This document shows positions 5,871-63,254 of a stretch of 64,000 nt of DNA, piece after piece. The position numbers and the translations under genes were made by a program. Origin of the DNA: an uncultured archaeon (GTDB lineage: Archaea > Thermoproteota > Bathyarchaeia > 40CM-2-53-6 > CALIRQ01); assembly GCA_938042195.1 (NCBI GenBank), contig CALIRQ010000006.1, positions 46,868-110,867 of the forward strand. The letters are read 5' to 3'. The notes beneath the pieces are model-generated. The model saw only the letters and a program-made list of their open reading frames with translations. It was not told the origin of the DNA and did no database searches. Within the stretch, counting starts at the first letter, position 1; every line of letters starts with the position of its first letter.

Positions 5871-8800
5871 CTAGGAGGAGGTAAACATGTAAAGGTCTAT
5901 CAGCCCCGTGCCCATCGGTATTTGTTGTCCCACGATGACGTTCTCAGCCACGCCCTTCAAGAAGTCCTCATCCCCCCTCAGGGCGGCGTCCGCTATCGTC
6001 GGAACGGTGATCTCAAAAGCGGCCTTCGCCAGGGGGCTCGCTTTCTCTCCGGTGACGCCGTGCCTACCGACTTGGAGGACCCTGCCGGACGCCGTCATGA
6101 CGTCGGCCACTAGCATCACATGCCTTATGTCCACATCCAAACCCTGCTCCTCCAAGACGCTCATCGCCTCCTTTATTATGACGTTCCTCGCGGCCTCTAT
6201 CCCGAGGACCGCGGCCACCTCATGTATGTCATTGCTTATCGTCCTTGTGGGATCCACCCCAGGGGTCCTCAGGGCAATCGCGAGCCCGGAGCCCTCAGTC
6301 TTCAGGACCCACTCCCCGTTCTCCTCCACGACCAAAGCCCTCTTCACTGTGGGTATTCCCTTGACGTGCAAGGCCTCTATCCTGGATTGCAACTTCCTGA
6401 ACTGTGGCAACTCCATATTCCTGGCGGTTATATCTATGTTTAGGCCATGGAACTTCACGTCGCATAGCCCAAGCCTTATGGATTTTTGAAGCTCCGACAT
6501 CGCCACGCCCCTCTTCCTCATGGCGTCCGGGTCCAGCCTAACGATCACCTTCATCTCGGTTAAATCCGATTCTATGCTCGATGCGATATCCCCCAAAGTG
6601 GTATGGGTTATCCTGGACGCCACCCTCTCGGCCTTCTCCTTGCTTGACCTATGCTCCTTATCCAAATAAACGGTCATTGTTGGCGTGGAGGGCGTCTTCC
6701 TAGCATCCACTATCTCGATGAGCCTAGGGAGGCCCAAGGTGACGTTCTGCTCCCTTACGCCGGCGAAGTGGAATGTCCTTAACGTCATCTGGGTCCCGGG
6801 CTCCCCTATGGATTGGGCCGACACCATTCCCGAGGCCTCCCCGGGCTCGATTAAGGACGACTCATATTTCCTAACGACCTCCTCCACGACTTCATCGACC
6901 GCTTCCTTCGTTAACTTGGCCCCTAGGATCTTGGATCTCAGCTCATCCGCCAGCTTCGGCGTCAACCTGCTCTTATATTGCGAGAGCCTCTTGATGACGT
7001 ACTCCTTCGTGGCCTTTCTACCCTTTCCCATGGCGAGCTTGACCTTCTCAATTACCGCATCCACATTAACGGATTTCCCGCGATCGCTCTTGGACGTATC
7101 CGTCCCATCCTCGCCATATTTGAACTGTATTATATTCCCGTTTGGATCCCTAACGGTGTTGTCATACTCAACCCTTATATGTTCAAGGGCGTTCACCAAG
7201 CGCCTCTGCATGTAGCCACTCTGTTGCGTTCTAACGGCGGTATCGACCAAGCCCTCCCTCCCGCCCATGGCATGGAAGAAGAACTCTATCGGATTGAGCC
7301 CATCCCTGTAGGAAGAGTAAATGAATCCCCTCGCGGCCGCGCCAGCATCGCCCCATTCAAAGAACGAGAGGGTCCTGTCTCTGTATCCCCTCAATATCCT
7401 CTTCCCCCTTATCGATTGTTGCCCCAAGCATGCCGTCATTTGGCCTATGTTGAGCATGGATCCTCTGGCCCCCGTCCTGGTCATTACGATCCCGCTGTTC
7501 TCCATCCCGAAGTAAACCTCAGCGCACTCGCCCGCTTGATCCCTGGCCTTGGATAGCTCATTCATTATATGTATTTCCAAAGTTTCTTTCAAGGATTGGC
7601 CCGGAAGCCTTTCCAAGGTCCCGCTCCGGTAAGCCTCTATCAAGGAGGAGACGTTCCTCTCGGCCTTCTCTATGACCTTGGCGATCTTTGCCCTGACTTG
7701 ATTCGGGAGATCCAGCTCATCTATGGAATAGGTGAAACCCTTCAGGGTTAGGAACCTATCAAGGAGTTTCGATATGGAATTCAGGAACCTAGCGGCTACA
7801 TCGGTCCCATAATCCTTCACTATCCTGTGGAATAGCGTACCCGATTTCTCGGCCCCTATGGAATTTTTATCTATAACTCCCTTTATGAGTTTTCCATCTT
7901 TAACGACTACGAATGCGTCGTATTCACATTTCTCCTCTAAGCATTTCTCGCATTTATAAATGCTGCATAGGTTTGACTTGGTCGAGAAGTATAGGCCCTT
8001 TGGCAGGAATAGGCTGAATATCTGTTTCCCGCTCCATAAGCGGTTCTTGCCATCCTTTGGTGGGGGAAGCTCCCCCTCATAATTTGCCGCCGCGAGCAAG
8101 ATCCCCACCTCCTCCTTGGTCAAATAAGTCCCCTCCTTGGTCAGGAGATAAGCGGCCGTGATCAGGTCCGTTTTCGCGCCTATGATAGGGCCGCCGTACC
8201 TAGGCGAGAGTATTTGATCCCGCACCCTGGCCAGAAGGTCCGCCTCTGTTATCGCTTCCTCGCTTTGGGGAACGTGGAGGTTCATTTCATCCCCATCAAA
8301 ATCAGCGTTATAGGGAGGGCAGACGCATGGGTTTAGCCTAAAGGTCTTATATGGAAGTACCTTGACCCTATGGGCCATGATCGACATCCTATGCAGCGAT
8401 GGTTGCCTATTGAATAGAACTATATCGCCATCCCTTAGGTGCCTCTCCAAGATGAAGCCGGGTTGTATGGCCTCCGCCAATTCCTTCCTATCGGATACGA
8501 ACTCCAACCTTATCCGCCTCCCATCGCTCCTAACTATATATAGGGCGCCCGGGTATTTCTCCGGCCCATTCTCTACCAACTTCCTAGCGTATTCTATGTT
8601 CCATTCCGTTATCCGCTCCGGCACCGTAAGCTTGCTCGCAATCTCCACCGGAACGCCAACCATATCTATTTCCAAGTTCGGGTCTGGGGATATCACAGTC
8701 CTCGCGGAGAAGTCCACCCTCTTCCCGGAGAGGTTCCCCCTGAACCTCCCCTCCTTCCCCTTGAGCCTTTGGGCGATCGTCTTGAGGGCCCTCCCCGACC

Positions 8801-9692
8801 TGTGCCTAGCTGGCGGTATCCCGGAAACCTCGTTATCAAAGAAGGTCGTCACGTGATATTGTAGGAGTTCGTGGAGTTCCTCGATTATGTTCACTGGGAC
8901 TCCTGAGTCTATGGCTTCCTTCAACTTCTGATTGATCCTGATTATATCCACCAGCTTGTGGGTCAAGTCGTCCTCGGAGCGTATTCCGGATTCGAGAGTT
9001 ATCGAGGGCCTCACGCTAACCGGTGGGACGGGCAGTACTTGGAGTATCGCCCATTCCGGCCTAGCCGTTTCCGGGTTTATGCCTATGAGCCTTAGATCCT
9101 CATCGGGGATCCTTTCCAACCTCTCCCTTATCAAGCCCGGCCTTAATTTAACGGCCCCCTCATCGACTATTTCATAAAATGATGTGGGCTTCTCATGCTC
9201 TATTGGATATTGCTTAGAGCCGCAGTAGGGACAATTTGAGTTCTTCTTCGCCTCCTTCATTATCGATTCATAAAGCGAATCGGGGACCGCGTTGAGCAGA
9301 TTCCTTTCCTCCTCCATTCTCCTCCGATATTCCTCCACCCTCTCGCTTGGGAGGCGTATCCTCCCGCAATCCCTGCAGGTGATCGTAAGAAGCTTGTGGA
9401 TTAGCTTGACGAAGGATATATGCACTACCGGCTCGGCCAGCTCTATATGCCCGAAGTGCCCCGGGCATAGGGCGGCCGTGTTCCCACAGGTTTTGCATTT
9501 TTGCCTGGGCTCCAAGGTCCCAAGCCTTCCGTCCATTAGGCCGGAGGGTATCGGGACGCCATCCTCGTCGTAGGTGTCTGGGGTCGTTATCTCCGCCACG
9601 GACATCTTGCGTATCTCGCTTGGGGATAGCAAGGAGAAGAGAACCCTGTTGATCCGCTTATATGCCTCTTCGCTCAATTCCATCTCGATCAC
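5871..9692 (-). CDS. rpoA: DNA-directed RNA polymerase largest subunit, fused A'+A'' (1273 aa)
   Basis: GHFGHIEL, catalytic YNADFDGDEMN, TAVRTQQSGYMQRRL, continuing in frame into the A'' motifs AQSIGEPGTQMTL and ENVIVGQ. Confidence 0.97.
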   Translation of the reverse strand: MIEMELSEEAYKRINRVLFSLLSPSEIRKMSVAEITTPDTYDEDGVPIPSGLMDGRLGTLEPRQKCKTCGNTAALCPGHFGHIELAEPVVHISFVKLIHKLLTITCRDCGRIRLPSERVEEYRRRMEEERNLLNAVPDSLYESIMKEAKKNSNCPYCGSKQYPIEHEKPTSFYEIVDEGAVKLRPGLIRERLERIPDEDLRLIGINPETARPEWAILQVLPVPPVSVRPSITLESGIRSEDDLTHKLVDIIRINQKLKEAIDSGVPVNIIEELHELLQYHVTTFFDNEVSGIPPARHRSGRALKTIAQRLKGKEGRFRGNLSGKRVDFSARTVISPDPNLEIDMVGVPVEIASKLTVPERITEWNIEYARKLVENGPEKYPGALYIVRSDGRRIRLEFVSDRKELAEAIQPGFILERHLRDGDIVLFNRQPSLHRMSIMAHRVKVLPYKTFRLNPCVCPPYNADFDGDEMNLHVPQSEEAITEADLLARVRDQILSPRYGGPIIGAKTDLITAAYLLTKEGTYLTKEEVGILLAAANYEGELPPPKDGKNRLWSGKQIFSLFLPKGLYFSTKSNLCSIYKCEKCLEEKCEYDAFVVVKDGKLIKGVIDKNSIGAEKSGTLFHRIVKDYGTDVAARFLNSISKLLDRFLTLKGFTYSIDELDLPNQVRAKIAKVIEKAERNVSSLIEAYRSGTLERLPGQSLKETLEIHIMNELSKARDQAGECAEVYFGMENSGIVMTRTGARGSMLNIGQMTACLGQQSIRGKRILRGYRDRTLSFFEWGDAGAAARGFIYSSYRDGLNPIEFFFHAMGGREGLVDTAVRTQQSGYMQRRLVNALEHIRVEYDNTVRDPNGNIIQFKYGEDGTDTSKSDRGKSVNVDAVIEKVKLAMGKGRKATKEYVIKRLSQYKSRLTPKLADELRSKILGAKLTKEAVDEVVEEVVRKYESSLIEPGEASGMVSAQSIGEPGTQMTLRTFHFAGVREQNVTLGLPRLIEIVDARKTPSTPTMTVYLDKEHRSSKEKAERVASRITHTTLGDIASSIESDLTEMKVIVRLDPDAMRKRGVAMSELQKSIRLGLCDVKFHGLNIDITARNMELPQFRKLQSRIEALHVKGIPTVKRALVVEENGEWVLKTEGSGLAIALRTPGVDPTRTISNDIHEVAAVLGIEAARNVIIKEAMSVLEEQGLDVDIRHVMLVADVMTASGRVLQVGRHGVTGEKASPLAKAAFEITVPTIADAALRGDEDFLKGVAENVIVGQQIPMGTGLIDLYMFTSS

Positions 9693-13296: not shown

Positions 13297-13430
13297 ATCC
13301 CACTTCTCTCCCCCAGAATTACAATTTCTTGACGATCGCCAAGATGGCTCCTCTAGCCGGCATTGAACGGTTTAATAAATTTTTTGAATCTCCTAGGCCC
13401 GCCCACGCCAAATGATGGAGCTACATTGTG

Positions 13431-13564
13431 TGGCGGGCCCGCCGGGAATTGAACCCGGGGCCACCGGGTCTCTCCCCGGGGGTAAAAGCTTCGCCGGCGC
13501 CCCGCGACGCCACCGGTGCTCTACCTGGCTGAGCTACACGGCTCCTTTGGGAGCTTACGGGCCC
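13431..13564 (-). tRNA. tRNA-Lys(UUU) with three introns (9/10, 30/31, 37/38)
   Basis: Removing 13555-13535 (21 nt), 13512-13490 (23 nt) and 13482-13470 (13 nt) leaves a 77-nt cloverleaf: GGGCCCG UA GCUC AGCCAGGUA GAGC A CCGGG CUUUUAA CCCGG UGGCC CCGGG UUCAAUU CCCGG CGGGCCC G CCA. Each junction forms a BHB-like fold. Confidence 0.9.
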
Positions 13565-13656
13565 AGCAGGCCCGCCCGCTACGCAAAGGGGGCAATTTTC
13601 TAATTAATCTTTCCCGAGCCAAGTTTAAATGCCCTAACCGATAAATCAAAACTGGG

Positions 13657-15691: not shown

Positions 15692-15816
15692 GCCCTGGTA
15701 GTATAGAGGTATTAAAGATACCGTAAAACCCGGCCTAGTATGTGCGGCTGTCGCCCGCACGACGCGGGTTCAAATCCCGCCCAAAAGGGACCATAATCCC
15801 TTGGCGAGGGGCGCCA
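15692..15816 (+). tRNA. tRNA-Asp(GUC) with two introns (15/16 and 68/69)
   Basis: Removing 15707-15728 (22 nt) and 15784-15808 (25 nt) gives a 78-nt cloverleaf: GCCCUGG UA GUAU AGCCCGGCCUA GUAU G UGCGG CUGUCGC CCGCA CGAC GCGGG UUCAAAU CCCGC CCAGGGC G CCA. Confidence 0.9.
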
Positions 15817-34663: not shown

Positions 34664-35401
34664 ATGGACCCGAAGAGCAGCTCGAGGCTGGCGGACCTGA
34701 AGTATAAGCTGATGACGGTCGAGCTCCTCAACCTAGCCAAGAATTACTATACCTACCGCGAGCTATCCCAGCTCACCGAGCTGCCGGAAACGGTCCTGAG
34801 CAGATATGTGAAGGGCCACGTGATGCCCACCATAGAAAGGGCCAGGAAGCTGAACAGGATCTTGGAGAAGAACCTGAGGCTGGAGGTGGAGCTCCAGAAG
34901 AGGATAAAGATGGATGATTATGGATTCTTCGATAATACCAAGATCATCTCCGATACCCTCCTCCTCGATAGGGCCGTCAACTGGGCCATCAATAGGTTCG
35001 CGGGAAAGCGGGTAACGAAGGTCCTCAGCGCCGCCGTCGACGGGATACCATTGGCCACCCTGCTGGCCCATAGGCTCGGGGTTGGCCTAGTAATAGCCAA
35101 GAAGGCGAAGGAGGTGGGCATAAAGGAGTTCATAGAGGAGGTTTACATCCCCTCTAAAGCCGCCATAATGGTCAGCCTATACATCCCCAGGGATGCCATA
35201 AAAAGGGGCGATGCCGTTCTGATAGCGGATGACGTCATCGATAGCGGCGAAACCCAAAGGGCCCTCATCAGGATGATCCATAAGGCCAAGGCGGAGGTGA
35301 GCGGCATCTTCTCCCTGATAGCCATAGGGGATGAATGGAGGAAGGGCATAGAGGAGGAGGTCAAATGCCCCATAGAGGTCGTGCTCACCATCAAGAAATG
35401 A
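34664..35401 (+). CDS. HTH-containing phosphoribosyltransferase-like protein (archaeal PurR/Apt-like regulator)
   Basis: N-terminal HTH ([23 protein letters not shown]) plus PRPP-binding loop [13 protein letters not shown]. Confidence 0.8.
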
Positions 35402-36450
35402 ATCGGGCGAGGCCGGCCAGATCCCAAGGTTCGTAAACGCCCCTATCTGTTATTATAGCGCTTATCAGGTCCGGCGGCGTCAAATCGAAGGCCGGGTTGA
35501 GGGCGCCGACGCCCTTCGGGGCTATGCGGCGGCCGGCGAAGCTCAGGACCTCCTCCGGGTCCCTCTCCTCGATCGCTACCTCCTCGGGCTTGGAGGAGAA
35601 ATCGAACGTCGATAGCGGCGCGGCCACGTAGAACGGGATGGAGAACCTCTTAGCGGCTATCGCCAAGCCCAAGGTCCCTATCTTGTTGGCGACATGGCCC
35701 GTCGCAAGGACCCTATCGGCGCCGACGATCGCCTTGGAAACGAGGCCCTTGCTCATCAAATGCGCGGCCATCCCATCAGTTATCAAGGTCACCGGTATGC
35801 CGCCCCGGCTCAGCTCGAAGGCCGTTAGCCTAGCGCCTTGGAGGAGTGGCCTCGTCTCGGTGGCTATGACCTCGATCCGCTTCCCGGCCTCAACGGCGGC
35901 CCTTATCACGCCCAAGGCCGTCCCATAGCCGGCGGTGGCCAGGGCCCCCGCATTCCGCTGGCCCTCGGGGCCAATTGCAGTGCGTTAGGACCCTATCGCC
36001 ATCCTCCAGCAGGGCGGCCCCGAATGCCCCGAGCCTCCTATTCGCCTCCATATCCTCCTCGGCTATCCGCTTCGCCTCCTCCACGACGGCTCCAACGATA
36101 TCGCCCGGGCCCGCCTCCCTCGCCTTCGATAGGATCCTGGAGATGGCCCATTGAAGATTGGCGCCGGTCGGCCTCGTGGCCCTCAAGGCCTCAGCGGCCC
36201 TTTCAAGATCGGATAGGATCCTCTCGCCCTTCCCCTTGGATCTGAGGGCCGCGAGAGCCATCCCGGCCGCGGCCGCAACCCCGATCGCCGGCGCGCCCCT
36301 AACCGCCATGTCCCTTATCGCCTCAGCCACATCGCGAGGAGTCCTGCAACGGATGCGGCGCAACCTCCAAGGCAGGGCCCTTTGATCTATTATGACGACC
36401 TCCCTGCCCCTTAGCTCGACCGGTCTTAGGTCAAATGCCCTCGATCCCAA
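35391..36450 (-). CDS. mtnA: S-methyl-5-thioribose-1-phosphate isomerase (MtnA / eIF-2B family), interrupted by a 22-nt intron
   Basis: Exon 1 (36450-35975) encodes [24 protein letters not shown] and LTHC-N. Exon 2 (35952-35391) encodes [36 protein letters not shown] and NPAFDLTP. Joined length is 1038 nt = 345 aa + stop. Start is TTG 36450 or ATG 36465. The ORF track shows two ORFs in different frames. Confidence 0.88.
35953..35974 (-). other. Putative pre-mRNA BHB/BHL intron in mtnA (UUGGCCCCGAGGGCCAGCGGAA)
   Basis: Fold: CUGC / AA|U bulge / UGGCCC-CGA-GGGCCA hairpin / GCGG / AA|U, closed by CGC/GCG. Excision at the two AA|U sites restores frame and the THCNAG motif. Confidence 0.85.
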
Positions 36451-36483
36451 AGCGGAACCTCCCATTGTTGAGCGGTCCGATCG

Positions 36484-36568
36484 CGATAAAAACCTTGGCC
36501 CAAGATCCGGTTCGGATGTTTGGGGAACGAATCGCTTAAGCGGAAGCGGCGATCGAATGGTTAAATAT
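36484..36568. promoter_or_regulatory. Back-to-back TATA-like boxes between mtnA and the splicing endonuclease gene
   Basis: TTTTAT on the minus strand (about 36486-36491) and TTAAATAT on the plus strand (36561-36568), each roughly 25-40 nt upstream of a start codon. Confidence 0.5.
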
Positions 36569-36592
36569 GACTTGGGATGAGGTAGGGCGGCC

Positions 36593-37105
36593 TTGGAAGG
36601 GGAAGCCCAAAGGTTCGATGGCCGCATCCGCGGGAGGGCGGCGGTGATACCTAACGGCGGGGCCATAGGGGAGCTCAGGGAGAGGGGGTTCGGTGAGCCG
36701 AGGAATGGCGATCTCATACTCTCCCCGTACGAGGCGTTCTACCTCATCGAGAAGGGAAAGCTCAGGATATTGGATCCTAAGGGGGGAAGGGAGCTATCGC
36801 TCGAGGAGATCGTCGGGAGGCTATCGAGGGGCAGGGCCGAGGTTTGGCTGAAGTATTTGGTCTTCAAGGACCTCAGGGATCGCGGCTACATAGTGAGGGA
36901 CTTCAAGGGGATGAACTTGGAGGTCTATGGGAAGGGGCCCCAGAGGAGGATCGCGAGGATCATTTACGAGGGCGGGGAGGCGAGCTTGGATGAGCTCAGG
37001 AGGGCGCTCAGGGCATCAGCGAGGGCCGGAAGGGAGCTCATATTGGCGGTCGTGGATAGGAGGACCGACATAGTGTATTATTCCCTGGGCGAGCTGAAGC
37101 TGTGA
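36593..37105 (+). CDS. endA: tRNA splicing endonuclease, structural (beta) subunit
   Basis: LSPYEAFYLIEKG, KYLVFKDLRDRGYIV and LILAVVDRRTDIVYYSL (L10 loop/beta9). The catalytic Tyr position is kept (LEVY), but there is no His after it and the catalytic Lys segment reads RAGRE. Confidence 0.87.
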   Translation: MEGEAQRFDGRIRGRAAVIPNGGAIGELRERGFGEPRNGDLILSPYEAFYLIEKGKLRILDPKGGRELSLEEIVGRLSRGRAEVWLKYLVFKDLRDRGYIVRDFKGMNLEVYGKGPQRRIARIIYEGGEASLDELRRALRASARAGRELILAVVDRRTDIVYYSLGELKL

Positions 37106-37117
37106 GGGGCCGAGGGG

Positions 37118-38437
37118 TTGACGAGGTTCGCGGTTCCGAGGGGAATGAGGGACCTATGGCCCGAGGATTGGGCCAAGATGGATTGGATGGGGAGGAGGAT
37201 ACTCGACGTCCTGATTGGCTATGGCTTCAAGCCCGTTGAGCCCTCGAAGATCGAGCTGTTGGAGACTCTGGAGGCGAAGAGCGGCCCATCGATAAAGGAG
37301 GAGATCTATTGGTTCGAGGACAAGGCCGGCAGGCCCTTGGGCCTTAGGTTCGATCTCACGGTGGGGCTGGCCCGAATGGTCGCCGGGAGGCCCGACCTCC
37401 CATTGCCGGCCAAGTTCTGCGCGATATCGGATATGTGGCGCTACGATGAGCCCCAATTCGCCAGGTATAGGCATTTTTGGCAATGGGATGCGGAGATCTT
37501 CGGATCCGAGCTCGCTGAGGCGGATGCGGAGGTCATCTCGGCTGGGATCGATGTCCTAAGGGCCGTTGGGATAGTGAACTTCGAGGTGAGGATAAGCGAT
37601 AGGAAGCTGGCCGAGGGGTTCCTGAGGGGGATGGGCATCGGGGATCCAGCGCGGCTCGGGGAGGCCATAAGGATCTTGGATAAGCGAGGGAAGCTATCCC
37701 GAGGGGAGTTCCTAGGGGAGCTGAGGTCCCTCGGCCTAGACGATAGGCAGATCGAGGGGATATTGGATTTCGTCTCCATAAAGGCGCCCCTGGAGGAGGG
37801 GCTGAGCAGGGCGAGGGGCTTGGGCCTCGAGCGCGGTATGGCCGAGGAGGGGTTGAAGGAGCTCGAGGGCTTGGCCGATGCCCTGAGGGGCTTCGGGATC
37901 GGCCAAGAGGCCGTCTTGGACCTGAGCGTGGTGAGGGGATTGGATTATTACGACGGCATCGTATTCGAGGCTTATGATCGGGGCGGGGAGGATATAGGCG
38001 CCATCTTCGGGGGCGGGAGATACGATGGGCTCTGCGGCATTTACGGGCGGAATGTCCCCGGGACCGGATTGGCCGGCGGGATGGAGCGCATGATGCTCTC
38101 CTTAGAGCGCTCGGCCCTCTTCCCGAAGCTCAGGAGCGGGCCGCTAGTCTTCGTGGCATCCGCCAACGAGGCCGTTAGGAAGGAGGCGATCCGGATGGCC
38201 CAAAGGCTCAGGGCTAAGGGGATACCCGCTGAGTTCGATCTGAAGGGGAGGTCCCTCAGGGGCCAGATGGAGTATGCGGCCGGATCGGGCATGCCCTACG
38301 CCTTGATAATTGGGCCCAGGGAATTGGAGAAGGGGGTAGTTAAGTTGAGGGATTTGGGCGCGAGGTCCGAGGAGGAGCTGAGCGCGGAGGATTGCCTCAA
38401 GAAGCTCTCGGACTTAGCCAGATCCTTCGCCCGCTGA
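37118..38437 (+). CDS. hisS: Histidyl-tRNA synthetase
   Basis: PRGMRD, LRFDLT, WRYDEPQFARYRHFWQ, RGLDYYDG, GGGRYDGL, anticodon-binding domain. Confidence 0.96.
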   Translation: MTRFAVPRGMRDLWPEDWAKMDWMGRRILDVLIGYGFKPVEPSKIELLETLEAKSGPSIKEEIYWFEDKAGRPLGLRFDLTVGLARMVAGRPDLPLPAKFCAISDMWRYDEPQFARYRHFWQWDAEIFGSELAEADAEVISAGIDVLRAVGIVNFEVRISDRKLAEGFLRGMGIGDPARLGEAIRILDKRGKLSRGEFLGELRSLGLDDRQIEGILDFVSIKAPLEEGLSRARGLGLERGMAEEGLKELEGLADALRGFGIGQEAVLDLSVVRGLDYYDGIVFEAYDRGGEDIGAIFGGGRYDGLCGIYGRNVPGTGLAGGMERMMLSLERSALFPKLRSGPLVFVASANEAVRKEAIRMAQRLRAKGIPAEFDLKGRSLRGQMEYAAGSGMPYALIIGPRELEKGVVKLRDLGARSEEELSAEDCLKKLSDLARSFAR

Positions 38438-38526
38438 GCCTTCGGGCAAGGCCCATGGGATTATCCCTCAGGCCTCTCCAATCCCGATAATATTAAATAG
38501 GCGGGTTTTCCCTTCCAACGTTCAAG

Positions 38527-38624
38527 GCATCCGGGGGAGCTGGGGGAACCCGGCTGAGAGGGTGGCAGATCCGCCACCGACCCTTGGAACCTGATCCGGG
38601 TAATGCCGGCGAAGGGAGGGATGC
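38527..38624 (+). promoter_or_regulatory. TPP (THI-box) riboswitch
   Basis: P1 GCAUCC/GGAUGC; conserved GCUGAGA, GACCC, GAACCUGAUC and GGGUAAUGCCGGCGAAGGGA; TATA-like ATTAAATA about 30 nt upstream; directly upstream of thiW. Confidence 0.93.
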
Positions 38625-38724
38625 GGTGGATGGGCTATCCGCCGAAGCCCAGCCGAGCGCTGGGGCTCCTTCTCCGATCCGGATCCGTTCCCCCGGGTGC
38701 ATCGAAGCTCGGAGGTGAATGCAT

Positions 38725-39294
38725 ATGAAGGCTGGCGAAAGGGGGTTGACCCTGAATTTGATCCTCGCGGCTTGCCTAACGGCCTTGGGGGTGGCCATAG
38801 CGCCCTTCTTCTATTTCCCGTTTCTGGGAACGAGGGCTTTCCCAGGGCAGCATTTGATCAACGCGCTAACGGGCGTCATCCTCGGGCCTTGGTGGGGCGC
38901 CCTGGTCGCCGTCCTGATAGGCATCGTTAGGAACCTGCTCGGCGTGGGGACCATATTCGCCTTCCCGGGCGGGATCCCCGGCGCCATCGTGGTCGGCTTG
39001 GCCTATGGGGCAATGCGGCGCTTCAAGGGGAGGCGCTTCCGCTACGCGGCGGCCCTGTTCGAGCCCCTTGGGACCGTTCTGATAGGAGCGACTTTCTCGC
39101 TCTTCTTGGTTGCGCCCATAATAGGCTGGAGGCCCCTCTTGAGCTTGATTGAGGGATTGGGCCCGCTCCCAGCGCTCCTAACGCTCTGGTTCGGCTGGTC
39201 GATAAGCTCCGTGACCGGCAGCGCGATGGGCTATATTGTCCTCCTAATCCTTGATAGGGTGGGCCTCATGGGCAAATTGTCCAAATCGCCTTGA
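38725..39294 (+). CDS. thiW: ECF-type thiazole/thiamine precursor transporter S component ThiW
   Basis: TRAFPGQHLINAL, LGVGTIFAFPGGIPGA, EPLGT; fully hydrophobic. Confidence 0.9.
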   Translation: MKAGERGLTLNLILAACLTALGVAIAPFFYFPFLGTRAFPGQHLINALTGVILGPWWGALVAVLIGIVRNLLGVGTIFAFPGGIPGAIVVGLAYGAMRRFKGRRFRYAAALFEPLGTVLIGATFSLFLVAPIIGWRPLLSLIEGLGPLPALLTLWFGWSISSVTGSAMGYIVLLILDRVGLMGKLSKSP

Positions 39295-40138: not shown

Positions 40139-40232
40139 GGGCCCGTGGCTCAGCCTGGATAGGGTTAAGGGCGTCCAAAGCGGCGGCCTCCTAAGTCGTA
40201 GGTCGTGGGTTCGAATCCCACCGGGCCCGCCA
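40139..40232 (+). tRNA. tRNA-Arg(CCU) with one intron (22/23)
   Basis: Removing 40163-40178 (16 nt; central helix GGAU/GUCC) restores the D-stem GCUC/GAGC; anticodon CCU; CCA encoded. Confidence 0.9.
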
Positions 40233-47280: not shown

Positions 47281-48663
47281 ATGTCCGCGATCCCGGCGCG
47301 AGTTCGCCAATGGGGATCCTTCATGATCCGTGGGCCGGAGGGGGTCCCGGAGATCGATGCCCTCGTTGGGATGCTCCGCTATGCCACGGGATCCAAGGGA
47401 ATTGGCGGCAAACTCAGGGCGGATCCGAAGGACTTCATCGTCAGGGAGCGCCTTTTGGACGGATCGATCGCCAGCGAGTCATTCGAGGGGGGGCAGCTAT
47501 CCGGGAAGGGCGACTTCCTTCGATGCGTCCTGGTGAAGTTGAATGTGGATCATTTCTCCGCGATCGAGCTCGCGGCCAAGGCCATGGGGTGCAGGCCGAG
47601 GGATGTGGGATTCGCCGGCATAAAGGACAAGAGGGCTCTTACGGCCCAATTCGTTACGTTTCCAGTAAGCAAGATCCGGGCTGGGGGGAGTAAGGCGAGG
47701 GGGATAGGCGATATCAAGTTAATCCCGGATGGGTTTGTGAATGAGGGATTACACCCAGGGAGCTCTGTTGGAAATCTCTTCGAGATAAGGGTTAGGGGAG
47801 CCCGCTCGGATCCGACTAGCCTCATGAGGGGCTTGGCGGAAATCGGCGCTTTGGGAGGGGTCCCAAACTTTTACGGATATCAAAGGTTCGGCACGGTGAG
47901 GCCCATAACGCATATCGTCGGAGGGGCCCTCGCGAGGGGCGATTTACGGGGGGCCCTCATGGAGTTCCTGGCGAGGGCCTTCAAATACGAGCCCCAAGAT
48001 GCGATCATGGCCAGAGAGGAGCTTTATGAAAGCGGGGATTTCGCAAAGGCTCTATCGGATTATCCGAAGCGCCTGCGCTTGGAGAGGATCGTGTTGAAGG
48101 CCCTGAAGCGCAATCCCTCGGATCCCCTTGGGGCCTTCAGGAGGTTGCCCCATGGCCTAAGGAGGCTCTTCGTCGAGGCCTATCAATCCTACTTATTCAA
48201 CAAGGTATTGAGCGGGCGCATGCTAAGGGGCCTTGATCTCAAATTGGTCGAAGAGGGGGATCTCATATCCCCCATTGCCGCCGATGGCTCGCCCCAAGGG
48301 GAGCCTAAGCCCGTCAAGGATCCCGAGGCGGCGAATATAGATGTAAGCGAGGGGAGGGCGTGTTTAGTGATTCCGGTCTTCGGCTACGGCGTAAGGCTTT
48401 CAGAGGGGGCCCAAGGGGAGATCGAAAGGGAGATCCTAGAAGGGGAGGGGATTTCGCCGAGGGCTTTCTACATAGGCGTTATGCCTGAGGCGAGTTGCGC
48501 GGGCAAATACAGGAGGGCTTTAATGCCCATTGAGGGCCTGCGTTTCGAGAGGATTGGGGAGGGCGAGCTCAAGTTCCAATTCTCCCTCCCAAGGGAGGGC
48601 TACGCCACGGTGGTCATGAGGGAGCTCATCAAGCCCGAGGATCCGGCGGGTCAGGGTTTCTGA
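47281..48663 (+). CDS. truD: tRNA pseudouridine(13) synthase
   Basis: PKDFIVRE, FAGIKDKRALTAQ, PNFYGYQRFG, AYQSYLFN, FSLPREGYATVVMREL. Start uncertain. Confidence 0.93.
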   Translation: MSAIPARVRQWGSFMIRGPEGVPEIDALVGMLRYATGSKGIGGKLRADPKDFIVRERLLDGSIASESFEGGQLSGKGDFLRCVLVKLNVDHFSAIELAAKAMGCRPRDVGFAGIKDKRALTAQFVTFPVSKIRAGGSKARGIGDIKLIPDGFVNEGLHPGSSVGNLFEIRVRGARSDPTSLMRGLAEIGALGGVPNFYGYQRFGTVRPITHIVGGALARGDLRGALMEFLARAFKYEPQDAIMAREELYESGDFAKALSDYPKRLRLERIVLKALKRNPSDPLGAFRRLPHGLRRLFVEAYQSYLFNKVLSGRMLRGLDLKLVEEGDLISPIAADGSPQGEPKPVKDPEAANIDVSEGRACLVIPVFGYGVRLSEGAQGEIEREILEGEGISPRAFYIGVMPEASCAGKYRRALMPIEGLRFERIGEGELKFQFSLPREGYATVVMRELIKPEDPAGQGF

Positions 48664-60842: not shown

Positions 60843-61176
60843 GGCGGCGGGGCTTAGGCGGGGGGCTCGGTCTCCCCTGAGGGAACCCAGTCCCGACCAC
60901 AAATGACCGATACGGTGGGCCGAGAGTCGCGGCGAGGCATCAACGACCTCGCTCTGCCTCCTGAGCCCGGCTGGGAGGGTTCGTCCCCCGGGGACGGCGT
61001 AGGGCGACGACCCCTTCTCGGAGGGGAGGGGGGCCGCCCGCGCGGGCCGAACCGGGGGAGGCTTGGGAAAGAGCACCCCTAAGGCCCGGCGTCGGCGCTC
61101 GGGGGGGAGCGGGCCTGAGTTGGGCAAGGGTCGGCGCGCGGGGCACCGAGGTGCCCAACCGCGATGTCCCGCCGCC
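60843..61176 (+). ncRNA. ffs: SRP (7S) RNA
   Basis: Helix 1 GGCGGCGGGGC/GUCCCGCCGCC; Alu loops UCGGUC and GACCGA complementary; helix 6 with a GGAG tetraloop; helix 8 GGGG-AGG-CUU-GGGA-AAG-AGCA-CCCC SRP54 motif. Confidence 0.9.
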
Positions 61177-62083
61177 TAATCAAGCCCATCAGGGCACAGG
61201 CTTTGCAAACCTCCCCGGATGAGGGCCCTCCGCATATCTTGCAAATCCCCTCACCAGCTTCGGATGAGCATTTGGCGAGGCTCCTCAGCGATTGCGCGGA
61301 TCTCAATATCGAGTATTTGGCACCCGGATGCCTAAGCTCCAAAATATTCAGCGCGGCCCTCACATCGTTCCTGATCGCCCCCTTCCCATATGGGCAGGCG
61401 GAGCTGACTATCGGGATCCCATTCAAGTAGGCATAAAGGGCGATCTCCTTCTCCGGGATCCTGAAGAAAGGCTTTATCCTGGGCGCGATACCTTGGCGAG
61501 GAGGGGAAACGGGCGATAGGGCCCTGAGGGCCCTCCCCGGATCTCCCCGGATTAGGTTGATGAGGAAGGTTTGCACCACGTCATCCAGATTATGCGCGAG
61601 GGCTAACTTATTCGCGCCCAAGATCTCCGCCAGATGATTCAGGGCCTTCCGCCTGAGCACCCCGCAATAGGAGCATGGATTTCCCTCGGGCTGGGAGGCG
61701 ATCATCTCGTCCAATGGGGAGCCGTAGAGCTCTTTGAATGAGGTCGCGATCCAAGGGATCCCCAGGACTTCGCAAAACCCCTTGGCGATGGAGAGGGCCC
61801 CATCCCTATAGCCCCCTATCCCCTCATCCACCATAACGGCCACGAGTTCGCAACTCGGGAACCTAGCTGTAAGCTTAGATAGGATATTCAGGAGGGATAA
61901 GCTATCCTTGCCCCCCGAAACCGCGACGGCGATCTTATCGTTAGGCTTAAGCATATCGTATTTGGATATCGTACGGCGGACCTTGTCCTCCAAGTTCCCA
62001 ATCAGGCAGCCGGCGCATAGGGCGACGCCCTCGTTCCTCCTCAAATATATTGCGGCGGAGGATTTGCAGATTGAGCAGTTCAT
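61079..62083 (-). CDS. tRNA 2-thiolation protein (Ncs6/TtuA family)
   Basis: N- and C-terminal zinc fingers, PP-loop SGGKDS, CSYCGVLRR, AHNLDD, CPY. Confidence 0.9.
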   Translation of the reverse strand: MNCSICKSSAAIYLRRNEGVALCAGCLIGNLEDKVRRTISKYDMLKPNDKIAVAVSGGKDSLSLLNILSKLTARFPSCELVAVMVDEGIGGYRDGALSIAKGFCEVLGIPWIATSFKELYGSPLDEMIASQPEGNPCSYCGVLRRKALNHLAEILGANKLALAHNLDDVVQTFLINLIRGDPGRALRALSPVSPPRQGIAPRIKPFFRIPEKEIALYAYLNGIPIVSSACPYGKGAIRNDVRAALNILELRHPGAKYSILRSAQSLRSLAKCSSEAGEGICKICGGPSSGEVCKACALMGLIRRRDIAVGHLGAPRADPCPTQARSPPSADAGP

Positions 62084-62093
62084 GAAACACCCC

Positions 62094-63254
62094 TCAGAAC
62101 TTGAATGGCCCAAAATTTATGTAGGAAAGCGCCAAGTTAGCGAAGAGAAGGCCCGCGCATGCTATGCTCGCAGCGATCCTTATCCCCCTTCTCCTCCTGA
62201 TGCCCATCGCATCGAGGAGGGCATCCAAATATCTATCCCCATCGAGGGGATATAGGGGCAACATGTTGATTAGGGCGACGTTCAGGAGGACCATGAAGAG
62301 CCAATTCTCGGCCATTAATAGTCTATAAGGAAGCTCCTTGGGGGCGAAGGGAACCCTTGGCTCGAAGAAGGGGAATGGATAAATTCCCATCGTGGCCCTG
62401 CTAGAGTTGAGCGGATGGGCCTTTGCTACGATTGGAAAGTCCCCCCTATCGGTCCTTGTGACGAGCACGGATCCAGGCTTTGCCATTGATAGGTAGGACC
62501 TTAGCGCGCTAGGATCCCAAACCCTCGTGCCGTTTATGGAGAATATCACATCCCAGCTCCTTATCCCGGCCTCCTTCGCCGGCCCCCCCTCCACGATTCC
62601 AGTTACCAAAACGCCCGATGGCTCGGTCGAGTACAATGGGTAGATCGTGGCGGGGAAATTCGACAATAGGATTAGAAACACAAGGGCCAGACATACGTTC
62701 ATTGAGGATCCGGCGGCGAATATCCTGAGCTTGGGGCGCCAGCTTAAGCCGCTCAGCTCCTTTTCATCGAGCTCCACGAATGCGCCAGGTATTAGATAGG
62801 CCAAGAATGCGCCCACCGATTTAGGCTTGACCCCCTCCAGGAGGCTGGCTATCCCATGAGACGCTTCATGGCTTACGACGAGGACGGCGATCGCCAACAA
62901 TAAGTAGGGCAGGCTCTCGAACCCAACGGTGATCCCTGGGACCAATATCGTGACCCTATCTGCCCCCTCGGCTCGATGCGCCAAAAGCCTAGCGTTCATC
63001 GCTAAGCGATAGATTATGAACGCCATCATGCCGATCCCGAGGGCCGCGCCAGAGTTGAAGAATGCCCTCCAGAGTTTGCTCCCCCTCCTAGAGATCGCCT
63101 CCAGAAGGCTGTTGAATGCCTTCGTTCTATAGGATAGATAGAAAAGGCCCACGGATATCCCCCTCTCCTTAAGCCTAAAGGCACGCGAAAGCGCGAAGAG
63201 CGCCAACCAACCGATCGAATAGACCGCTAGAGATTGGATCAGATCGAAGCCCAT
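62094..63254 (-). CDS. Site-2 protease (M50) with PDZ domain
   Basis: HEASH zinc motif, GAFVE, PDZ segment, NMLPLYPLDG. Confidence 0.92.
   Translation of the reverse strand: MGFDLIQSLAVYSIGWLALFALSRAFRLKERGISVGLFYLSYRTKAFNSLLEAISRRGSKLWRAFFNSGAALGIGMMAFIIYRLAMNARLLAHRAEGADRVTILVPGITVGFESLPYLLLAIAVLVVSHEASHGIASLLEGVKPKSVGAFLAYLIPGAFVELDEKELSGLSWRPKLRIFAAGSSMNVCLALVFLILLSNFPATIYPLYSTEPSGVLVTGIVEGGPAKEAGIRSWDVIFSINGTRVWDPSALRSYLSMAKPGSVLVTRTDRGDFPIVAKAHPLNSSRATMGIYPFPFFEPRVPFAPKELPYRLLMAENWLFMVLLNVALINMLPLYPLDGDRYLDALLDAMGIRRRRGIRIAASIACAGLLFANLALSYINFGPFKF

Follow-up and report, generated by a model that had tools for sequence, protein, structure and literature searches.

The window analysed here, meaning the whole 64-kb stretch of DNA, carries a 134-nt pre-tRNA gene on its minus strand (13564→13431), a span that equals exactly the coordinates given in the preliminary description, which named no strand. 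Read from 13564 to 13431, with slashes at the borders between exons and introns, the pre-tRNA is GGGCCCGUA / AGCUCCCAAAGGAGCCGUGUA / GCUCAGCCAGGUAGAGCACCGG / UGGCGUCGCGGGGCGCCGGCGAA / GCUUUUA / CCCCCGGGGAGAG / ACCCGGUGGCCCCGGGUUCAAUUCCCGGCGGGCCCGCCA. The gene sits just upstream of rpoH (13296–13039), which together with rpoB is on the same strand; the neighbouring DUF498 and LeuA/citramalate-synthase genes are on the opposite strand. The following features were assigned to the locus:

13596–13610, minus strand: TATA-like, AT-rich candidate promoter element (AGATTAATTAGAAAA), centred ∼40 nt upstream of the mature 5′-end
13565–13580, minus strand: predicted 5′ leader, with GGCGGGCCUGCU (13576–13565) as its conserved part
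13556–13564, minus strand: exon 1, tRNA positions 1–9 (GGGCCCGUA)
13535–13555, minus strand: intron 1, 21 nt, at 9/10, the only register with a BHB fit
13513–13534, minus strand: exon 2, tRNA positions 10–30
13490–13512, minus strand: intron 2, 23 nt, at 30/31, placed by BHB geometry and covariation
13483–13489, minus strand: exon 3, the anticodon micro-exon G31–A37 (GCUUUUA), a micro-exon that many metagenomic homologues share, flanked there by introns at 30/31 and 37/38
13470–13482, minus strand: intron 3, 13 nt, at the canonical 37/38 position, a relaxed bulge-helix-loop
13431–13469, minus strand: exon 4, tRNA positions 38–76, with discriminator G73 and an encoded CCA at 13433–13431

When the 21 nt at 9/10, the 23 nt at 30/31 and the 13 nt at 37/38 were taken out, the four remaining exons (9, 22, 7 and 39 nt) gave a 77-nt tRNA-Lys(UUU), CCA included. 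ARAGORN called this spliced sequence as tRNA-Lys(ttt), with Watson-Crick pairs at all seven positions of the acceptor stem and a complete cloverleaf; a canonical cloverleaf is therefore obtained once the introns are removed. The D, anticodon and T arms are normal, and U8, G18G19, U33, the UUCAAUU T-loop, G73 and CCA are all present. The four exons are collinear within 134 nt of one strand, so the gene is not of the split or permuted kind. The tRNA-Lys identity, the UUU anticodon and the introns at 9/10, 30/31 and 37/38 proposed in the preliminary description were thus reproduced, in agreement with the orthologues and the covariation described below, and the 7-nt anticodon exon GCUUUUA is present as claimed. 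A GUA repeat makes four placements of intron 1 (6/7 to 9/10) equivalent in sequence; those at 6/7, 7/8 and 8/9 yield the identical product but have no BHB geometry, and were rejected.

Nothing was called at the unspliced tRNA-Lys locus when ARAGORN was run on the raw window. The Rfam tRNA model found the unspliced gene at 30.5 bits (threshold, 29 bits) with a mis-paired acceptor stem; the cmscan fit spans 13543–13434, placing the 5′-end at AGCCGUG (13543) and a single insertion of ∼45 nt in the anticodon arm. That the gene has these boundaries and fewer introns is scarcely credible, since the fit requires three non-standard acceptor pairs and leaves no anticodon loop, whereas removal of the three introns gives the full acceptor stem and cloverleaf. 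Moreover, GGGCCCGUA, which lies 21 nt upstream of 13543, is conserved in all orthologues, and in intron-less homologues GGGCCCGUAGCUCAG...GGGCUUUUAA runs uninterrupted.

The splice motifs of the three-intron gene were compared with a BHB template that consists, on the 5′ side, of the 5′ exon strand h, H (4 nt), two bulge nucleotides, the cut, one bulge nucleotide and the h′ hairpin and, on the 3′ side, of H′ (4 nt), two bulge nucleotides, the cut, one bulge nucleotide and h. The elements found were:

Intron 1 (9/10), central helix H: C4–G7 with CGUG (C4-G, C5.U, C6-G, G7-C; 3/4), one C.U mismatch
Intron 1, h′: 5 bp, GCUCC/GGAGC
Intron 1, h: 6 bp, G1–G3 plus leader positions −1 to −3 with C11–C16
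Intron 1, bulges: UAA and UAG
Intron 2 (30/31), central helix H: C25–C28 with GGCG (C25-G, A26.C, C27-G, C28-G; 3/4), one A26.C mismatch
Intron 2, h′: 6 bp
Intron 2, h: 4 bp, A21–G24 with C32–U35
Intron 2, bulges: GGU and AAG
Intron 3 (37/38), central helix H: C32–U35 with GGAG (C32-G, U33-A, U34.G, U35.G; 4/4)
Intron 3, h′: none usable
Intron 3, h: G31-C39 only (1 bp), becoming 5 bp once intron 2 is removed
Intron 3, 3′ bulge: AGA

None of the three introns forms a strict canonical BHB, and all three fall within the relaxed definition (HBh′, hBH, BHL): introns 1 and 2 are hBHBh′ motifs with one mismatch each in H, and intron 3 is a BHL. The canonical 13-nt intron had been described as having almost no internal helix, and indeed only 1 bp is possible within it. 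An alternative pairing of C27–G30 with CCGG of intron 2, judged by hand, was rejected, as it would shift the cuts 2 nt into the intron and the product would not be a tRNA. Since H is mismatched in introns 1 and 2 and h′ is absent from intron 3, an enzyme of relaxed specificity would be needed to process all three motifs. The (αβ)2 form of EndA has been assigned mainly to TACK archaea, Bathyarchaeota included (PMC7714728), and in TACK archaea this enzyme tolerates relaxed motifs (PMC4090602, PMC7714728). Neither EndA nor RtcB was found by Pfam among the 58 ORFs of the window.

The closest GTDB genome is a Bathyarchaeia assembly from the JZ-2 hot-spring metagenome (JAWCOP010000211, here L002), the RpoH of which is 91% identical to that of the window; for other Bathyarchaeia in GTDB this value is 53–66%. 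An exact-protein look-up returned no match for RpoH and, for DUF498, only a 1.7-kb Logan contig. The DNA of the window occurs in a run labelled 'marine metagenome', and its near relatives in hot-spring runs; the host seems to be a hot-spring or vent lineage of Bathyarchaeia, and all its tRNA genes seem to carry introns of this kind.

All three introns are present both in L002 and in metagenome contig Ga0078972_1000332 (L083, identical to L162). The gene order rpoB-rpoH-tRNA-DUF498-IPMS (leuA) is common to the window, L002 and L083/L162, with proteins 81–93% identical (∼92% for RpoH). Across the window, L002 and L083 the exons are identical at 77 of 77 positions. In the introns, several substitutions and a 2-nt length difference were found in intron 1, three differing positions and one indel in intron 2, and differences at ∼4 of the 13 positions of intron 3; little of the 3′ flank or of the region preceding the promoter can be aligned. 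Identical exons set against drifting introns are the signature that a gene under selection would leave, its introns drifting within structural limits. The changes in intron 1 lie in the h′ loop or turn U-A into U.G inside h′, that is, they are one-sided or loop changes, with no double-sided compensatory change among these three closely related sequences.

Intron 1 starts with AGCUC, which resembles A9–C13 of the mature tRNA, and ends with GCCGUGUA, which resembles G3–A9 (GCCCGUA). It looks like an imperfect local duplication at the insertion point, which may be a hint of its origin or a matter of chance. With regard to the idea of intron transposition, intron 1 showed no similarity to any other sequence of the window.

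A single metagenome scan, anchored on exons 1–3 and allowing free gaps at both non-canonical sites, found 120 tRNA-Lys(UUU) genes. Some 40 of them are uninterrupted, and in many others a single intron lies in the 3′ part. The 30/31 intron (14–27 nt) occurs in ∼35 loci (29 distinct sequences), the combined 30/31 and 37/38 layout in at least 25 distinct genes, and the 9/10 intron is confined, among the 120 genes, to the clade of the window. As the first 38 mature nucleotides are the same as in ∼80 intron-less or differently interrupted metagenomic tRNA-Lys(UUU) genes, and two assemblies share the three-intron gene, the locus can be read as a real gene beyond chance.

Across the 29 distinct variants, the intron 2 ends GGUGAR, GAUGAR and GCUGAA track the exon sequences ACC, AUC and AGC, and an exon change of C27 to U or G is answered by an intron change of G to A or C. 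The h′ arms at 30/31 are wholly different between clades, yet paired in every one. In an end-anchored (pseudo-aligned) covariation alignment of 14 distinct homologues, 96.8% of the cells of the 30/31 BHB were paired, compared with 19–57% when the partners were slid; four pairs had changes on both sides, and none of 500 shuffles reached the observed covariation. The outer helix at 30/31 never varies among the homologues. The A.C mismatch of intron 2 was produced by a U to C change in the clade of the window, and L092 has the same change. In the canonical introns, RRRG stands opposite C32–U35 at n−5 to n−2 in all 23 distinct homologue variants, and a length of 13–15 nt with an h′ of 0–1 bp is the rule in genes that also bear the 30/31 intron.

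No introns interrupt the tRNA-Lys gene upstream of rpoH in Bathyarchaeota ex4484_205, Hadarchaeum and a Hodarchaeaceae (Asgard) genome, and L064, a low-GC relative at a greater distance (RpoH 60% identical), has a tRNA-Lys next to rpoH with introns at 30/31, 37/38 and 45/46. Since rpoH-linked orthologues lack introns and the 9/10 intron is found only in the clade of the window, the introns were gained in an orthologous gene, that at 9/10 last of all. In Hadarchaeum, Hodarchaeaceae and ex4484_205 (L013, L017, L023), an intron-less tRNA-Asp(GUC) followed by an intron-less tRNA-Lys(UUU) lies directly upstream of rpoH; in the window the Lys gene stays by rpoH and the Asp gene is 2 kb away on the other strand.

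The core of the TATA-like element (AAATTAAT) is retained in all three orthologues, and the sequence further upstream diverges. Its position agrees with that of Thermofilum tRNA promoters, located at −30 to −49 (PMC3218864). The element may act as the promoter, in which case transcription would probably start ∼14 nt upstream of the mature 5′-end. A sigma-70 promoter and terminator scan is uninformative for an archaeon. In the leader, GGCGGGCC(U)GCU is conserved in the window, L002 and L083, with no covariation. Leader positions −12 to −5 are the perfect complement of tRNA positions 68–75, positions −3 to −1 lengthen the outer helix of the intron 1 BHB, and an inverted repeat (I1; 15 nt, 87% complementary) links the leader with the 3′-end. 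The MFE fold computed with the leader combines the leader:3′-end pairing with a 7-bp helix formed by −3 to C4 with G10 to C16; without the leader, at 37°C, the conformation bearing BHB1 and BHB2 together has a nearest-neighbour energy of −27 kcal/mol, far above the −73 of the MFE fold, a point against the proposed splicing. Among 99 distinct leaders of homologues, the 8-nt perfect match between leader and 3′-end was confined to the clade with the 9/10 intron. Two exact copies of a 10-nt direct repeat (AGGCCCGCCC, plus strand) lie at 13395–13404, 27 nt past the CCA, and at 13568–13577, in the leader; the trailer copy is absent from L002, and the repeat was discarded as a meaningful element, being probably a chance occurrence.

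In a hot-spring metatranscriptome (X6), one unspliced 160-nt contig is identical to the L002 variant; it covers −37 through tRNA position 65, with all three introns still in place, and could be a precursor or DNA carry-over. Three raw-read metatranscriptomes of a related study had essentially no reads on the tRNA-Lys locus, and with coverage of the locus close to nil no spliced tRNA-Lys RNA was seen in these three data sets or in the X6 contig. This result and the mismatched H of introns 1 and 2 are what a decaying pseudogene would give, in which the extra segments are never removed and lysine AAA codons are read by another tRNA copy. Decay is nonetheless very improbable, since the identity of the 77 exon positions in three lineages, despite diverged introns and flanks, points to purifying selection on the exons, all three insertions have BHB geometry, and both the promoter-like element and the leader are conserved. 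The recurrence of the 30/31 and 37/38 layout in distinct metagenomic genes also argues against it, and no second tRNA-Lys was found within the 64-kb window, a search that included the CUUUUAA loop in a tRNA context. Judged from its sequence, the locus is very probably a functional gene for tRNA-Lys(UUU) in a thermophilic member of the Bathyarchaeia, with three predicted protein-spliced introns of the BHB type.

In the mechanism proposed for this functional gene, EndA, expected to be of the broad-specificity (αβ)2 type, would cut each intron in the 3-nt bulges that flank the 4-bp helix, and an RtcB-type ligase would join the four exons into the 77-nt tRNA. Nucleotides 32–35 are used twice, in the outer helix at 30/31 (21–24 with 32–35) and in the central helix at 37/38; likewise, C27 and C28 belong both to the central helix at 30/31 and to the outer helix at 37/38, which the anticodon stem forms. 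The sharing of nucleotides 32–35 suggests stepwise splicing in which intron 2 is most likely cut and ligated ahead of intron 3, an order also favoured because the anticodon stem that serves as the outer helix at 37/38 forms only after intron 2 has been removed, and because cutting on both sides at once would lose the 7-nt exon. It has been reported that closely spaced archaeal tRNA introns must be removed in turn (PMC4390854, PMC4033280, PMC8450103). The anticodon context had been considered hidden until two introns are removed; this is right for the anticodon stem, which is blocked until intron 2 is out, but not for loop nucleotides 32–37, which are contiguous in the micro-exon. As for intron 1, the conserved leader would hold the acceptor 3′ strand and lengthen the outer helix of the 9/10 BHB, thereby presenting this intron before the very stable acceptor stem (7 G-C pairs) forms and before trimming by RNase P. 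Such leader-assisted presentation ahead of RNase P is proposed, on the basis of three related sequences, from the conservation of the leader, its pairing with the 3′-end, the switch in the MFE fold and the clade-limited 8-nt match.

The three introns could instead be spliced independently and in any order, the leader providing promoter-proximal or RNase P context only. The probability of this is considerable, if somewhat below even, since (αβ)2 EndA cuts HBh′ and hBH half-motifs without a full BHB (PMC4090602), the leader is conserved without covarying, and the outer helix of BHB2 is invariant among homologues. It is at odds, however, with the need of two motifs for the same nucleotides 32–35 and with the fact that almost nothing would hold a 7-nt exon freed on both sides; nor would it account for a leader:3′-end match that alters the predicted fold and, among the 99 leaders, is restricted to the clade bearing the 9/10 intron.

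The window contains five tRNA genes, all of them with non-canonical introns, and ten introns in total. The four genes other than tRNA-Lys gave a full ARAGORN call only after in-silico splicing:

15692–15816, plus strand: tRNA-Asp(GUC), two introns (D-loop, 22 nt; acceptor 3′ strand, 25 nt)
18612–18502, minus strand: tRNA-Arg(UCG), two introns (29/30 and 37/38)
40081–39958, minus strand: tRNA-Leu(UAA), two introns (∼31/32 and 37/38, boundaries provisional)
40139–40232, plus strand: tRNA-Arg(CCU), one intron (D arm, 16 nt), its BHB having a perfect 4-bp central helix
13483–13489, 18562–18554 and 40030–40024, all minus strand: anticodon micro-exons of the Lys, Arg(UCG) and Leu(UAA) genes

The only ARAGORN call in the raw window, a tRNA-Leu(caa) at 40139–40232 (plus strand), was a misreading, the spliced gene being tRNA-Arg(CCU); for tRNA-Leu, introns at 25/26 and 40/41 were rejected in favour of a partition with a proper class-II variable arm. 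Both Asp introns are also present in the L083/L162 orthologue, where the hairpins show compensatory changes. In Lys(UUU), Arg(UCG) and Leu(UAA), the anticodon is carried on a micro-exon of 6–9 nt, delimited by an intron 5′ of the anticodon loop and the 37/38 intron. The load in the window is 2.0 introns per tRNA gene; to our knowledge, the record holder is Pyrobaculum calidifontis, with 1.54. It is tentatively suggested that this Bathyarchaeia clade combines the heaviest tRNA-intron load yet with a recurrent 6–9-nt anticodon micro-exon and with a recent 9/10 intron that co-evolved with the leader, the latter acting as an intramolecular chaperone that ties up the acceptor 3′ strand and lengthens the BHB; the probability of this is well below even. 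If true, leader-assisted splicing would come first and RNase P afterwards.

Among the metagenomic homologues, candidates for four-intron tRNA-Lys(UUU) genes were found in L063 and L078 (Ga0070740_10010647, Ga0209061_1000007) and in L072 and L106 (Ga0080006_1274177, Ga0209012_1000457), with introns at 30/31 (17–18 nt), 37/38 (15 nt), 48/49 (17–19 nt) and 57/58 or 58/59 (16 nt). They represent two variants that agree throughout their exons but have diverged in their introns, and the spliced product is a perfect 74-nt tRNA; their introns 1–3 are in BHB geometry, and the T-loop intron has only a relaxed form. These two variants thus appear, from their sequences, to carry four introns, one above the maximum of three BHB introns per archaeal tRNA gene given in reviews and in the tRNAscan-SE 2.0 paper (PMC8450103, PMC4390854, PMC4033280). 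A literature search for an archaeal tRNA with four introns found no case. The statement in the preliminary description that triple-intron tRNAs are rare is a fair one, but by the same papers the layout is not new in kind.

Three-intron pre-tRNAs have been described in Thermoproteales, for Pyrobaculum islandicum tRNA-Pro(UGG), interrupted at 25/26, 37/38 and 56/57, and for P. calidifontis tRNA-Glu(UUC) (Sugahara et al. 2007, as cited in PMC4390854 and PMC4090602). The Pyrobaculum genes resemble the tRNA-Lys gene in combining one canonical and two short non-canonical introns within a single cis-encoded tRNA gene, each with a BHB or relaxed BHB, and in being missed by ordinary tRNA finders until spliced in silico. 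The Lys gene differs from them in its Bathyarchaeia host, its 9/10 and 30/31 positions and its 7-nt anticodon micro-exon, as well as in a leader that joins the 9/10 motif and in the mismatches of both non-canonical central helices. In Ca. Caldiarchaeum subterraneum, 13 of 45 tRNA genes have introns, with several in three of them (PMC3293823), and tRNAscan-SE 2.0 includes a Thaumarchaeal intron model (PMC8450103). Thaumarchaeota and Aigarchaeota belong, like Bathyarchaeia, to the TACK superphylum as defined in PMC7714728, and BHB introns occur there too, in the D, anticodon, V and T arms, but their reported intron density is well below the 10 introns in five genes seen here. Split and tri-split tRNAs (Nanoarchaeum equitans; Caldivirga maquilingensis tRNA-Gly) likewise depend on the same endonuclease and ligase, which join their pieces at BHB motifs, and complementarity between leader and trailer brings these pieces together, as in the pairing of the Lys leader; those pieces, however, come from separate loci and are joined in trans, whereas the Lys exons are all on one 134-nt transcript. 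The multi-intron nuclear tRNA genes of Cyanidioschyzon merolae and those of nucleomorphs also have up to three ectopic introns with BHB-like junctions, but their host and enzyme are eukaryotic and some genes are permuted, while the Lys gene is archaeal (PMC3728597, PMC4090602). In the literature searched, neither a description of the Lys 9/10, 30/31 and 37/38 layout nor any paper on tRNA introns in Bathyarchaeia was found. The kind of gene layout is thus already known; what is new is the host class, the intron positions, the micro-exon shared by relatives and the leader pairing.

Several other genes of the window were noted. RNA polymerase subunit A is encoded by one unsplit ORF of 1273 aa (5871–9692, minus strand) with Rpb1 domains 1–5; this subunit is an A′/A″ pair in Crenarchaeota and Euryarchaeota, and the unsplit form is that of Thaumarchaeota and Korarchaeota. 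An IF-2B family gene (eIF-2B/ribose-1,5-bisphosphate isomerase type; 35391–36717, minus strand) appears as two overlapping ORFs, 35890–36717 matching profile positions 2–115 and 35391–35915 positions 121–280, which could reflect a frameshift, an assembly error or a real split. A TPP riboswitch (38523–38635, plus strand; 71.7 bits) lies directly upstream of a gene for the thiamine-precursor transporter ThiW (38719–39294, plus strand). Genes related to tRNA include those for histidyl-tRNA synthetase (37118–38437, plus strand) and a TruD-family pseudouridine synthase (47281–48663, plus strand), and a PP-loop ATPase (61079–62113, minus strand) is possibly a tRNA thiolation enzyme.

The known splicing mechanism is left unchanged by the tRNA-Lys gene. 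Ordinary annotation, in which ARAGORN misses the gene and Rfam barely detects it and with the wrong ends, would leave this genome without a reader of AAA codons; since ordinary tools miss or misplace the gene, intron-aware tools are needed for tRNA inventories of metagenome-assembled Bathyarchaeia. With its leader pairing, its 7-nt exon and helices that exclude one another, the gene is a compact substrate for tests of how endonuclease and ligase put several cuts in order. Finally, the rpoH-linked tRNA-Lys provides a natural series of intron gain, running from no introns in Hadarchaeota, Asgard and one Bathyarchaeon, through 30/31, 37/38 and 45/46 in a distant relative, to 9/10, 30/31 and 37/38 in the window.
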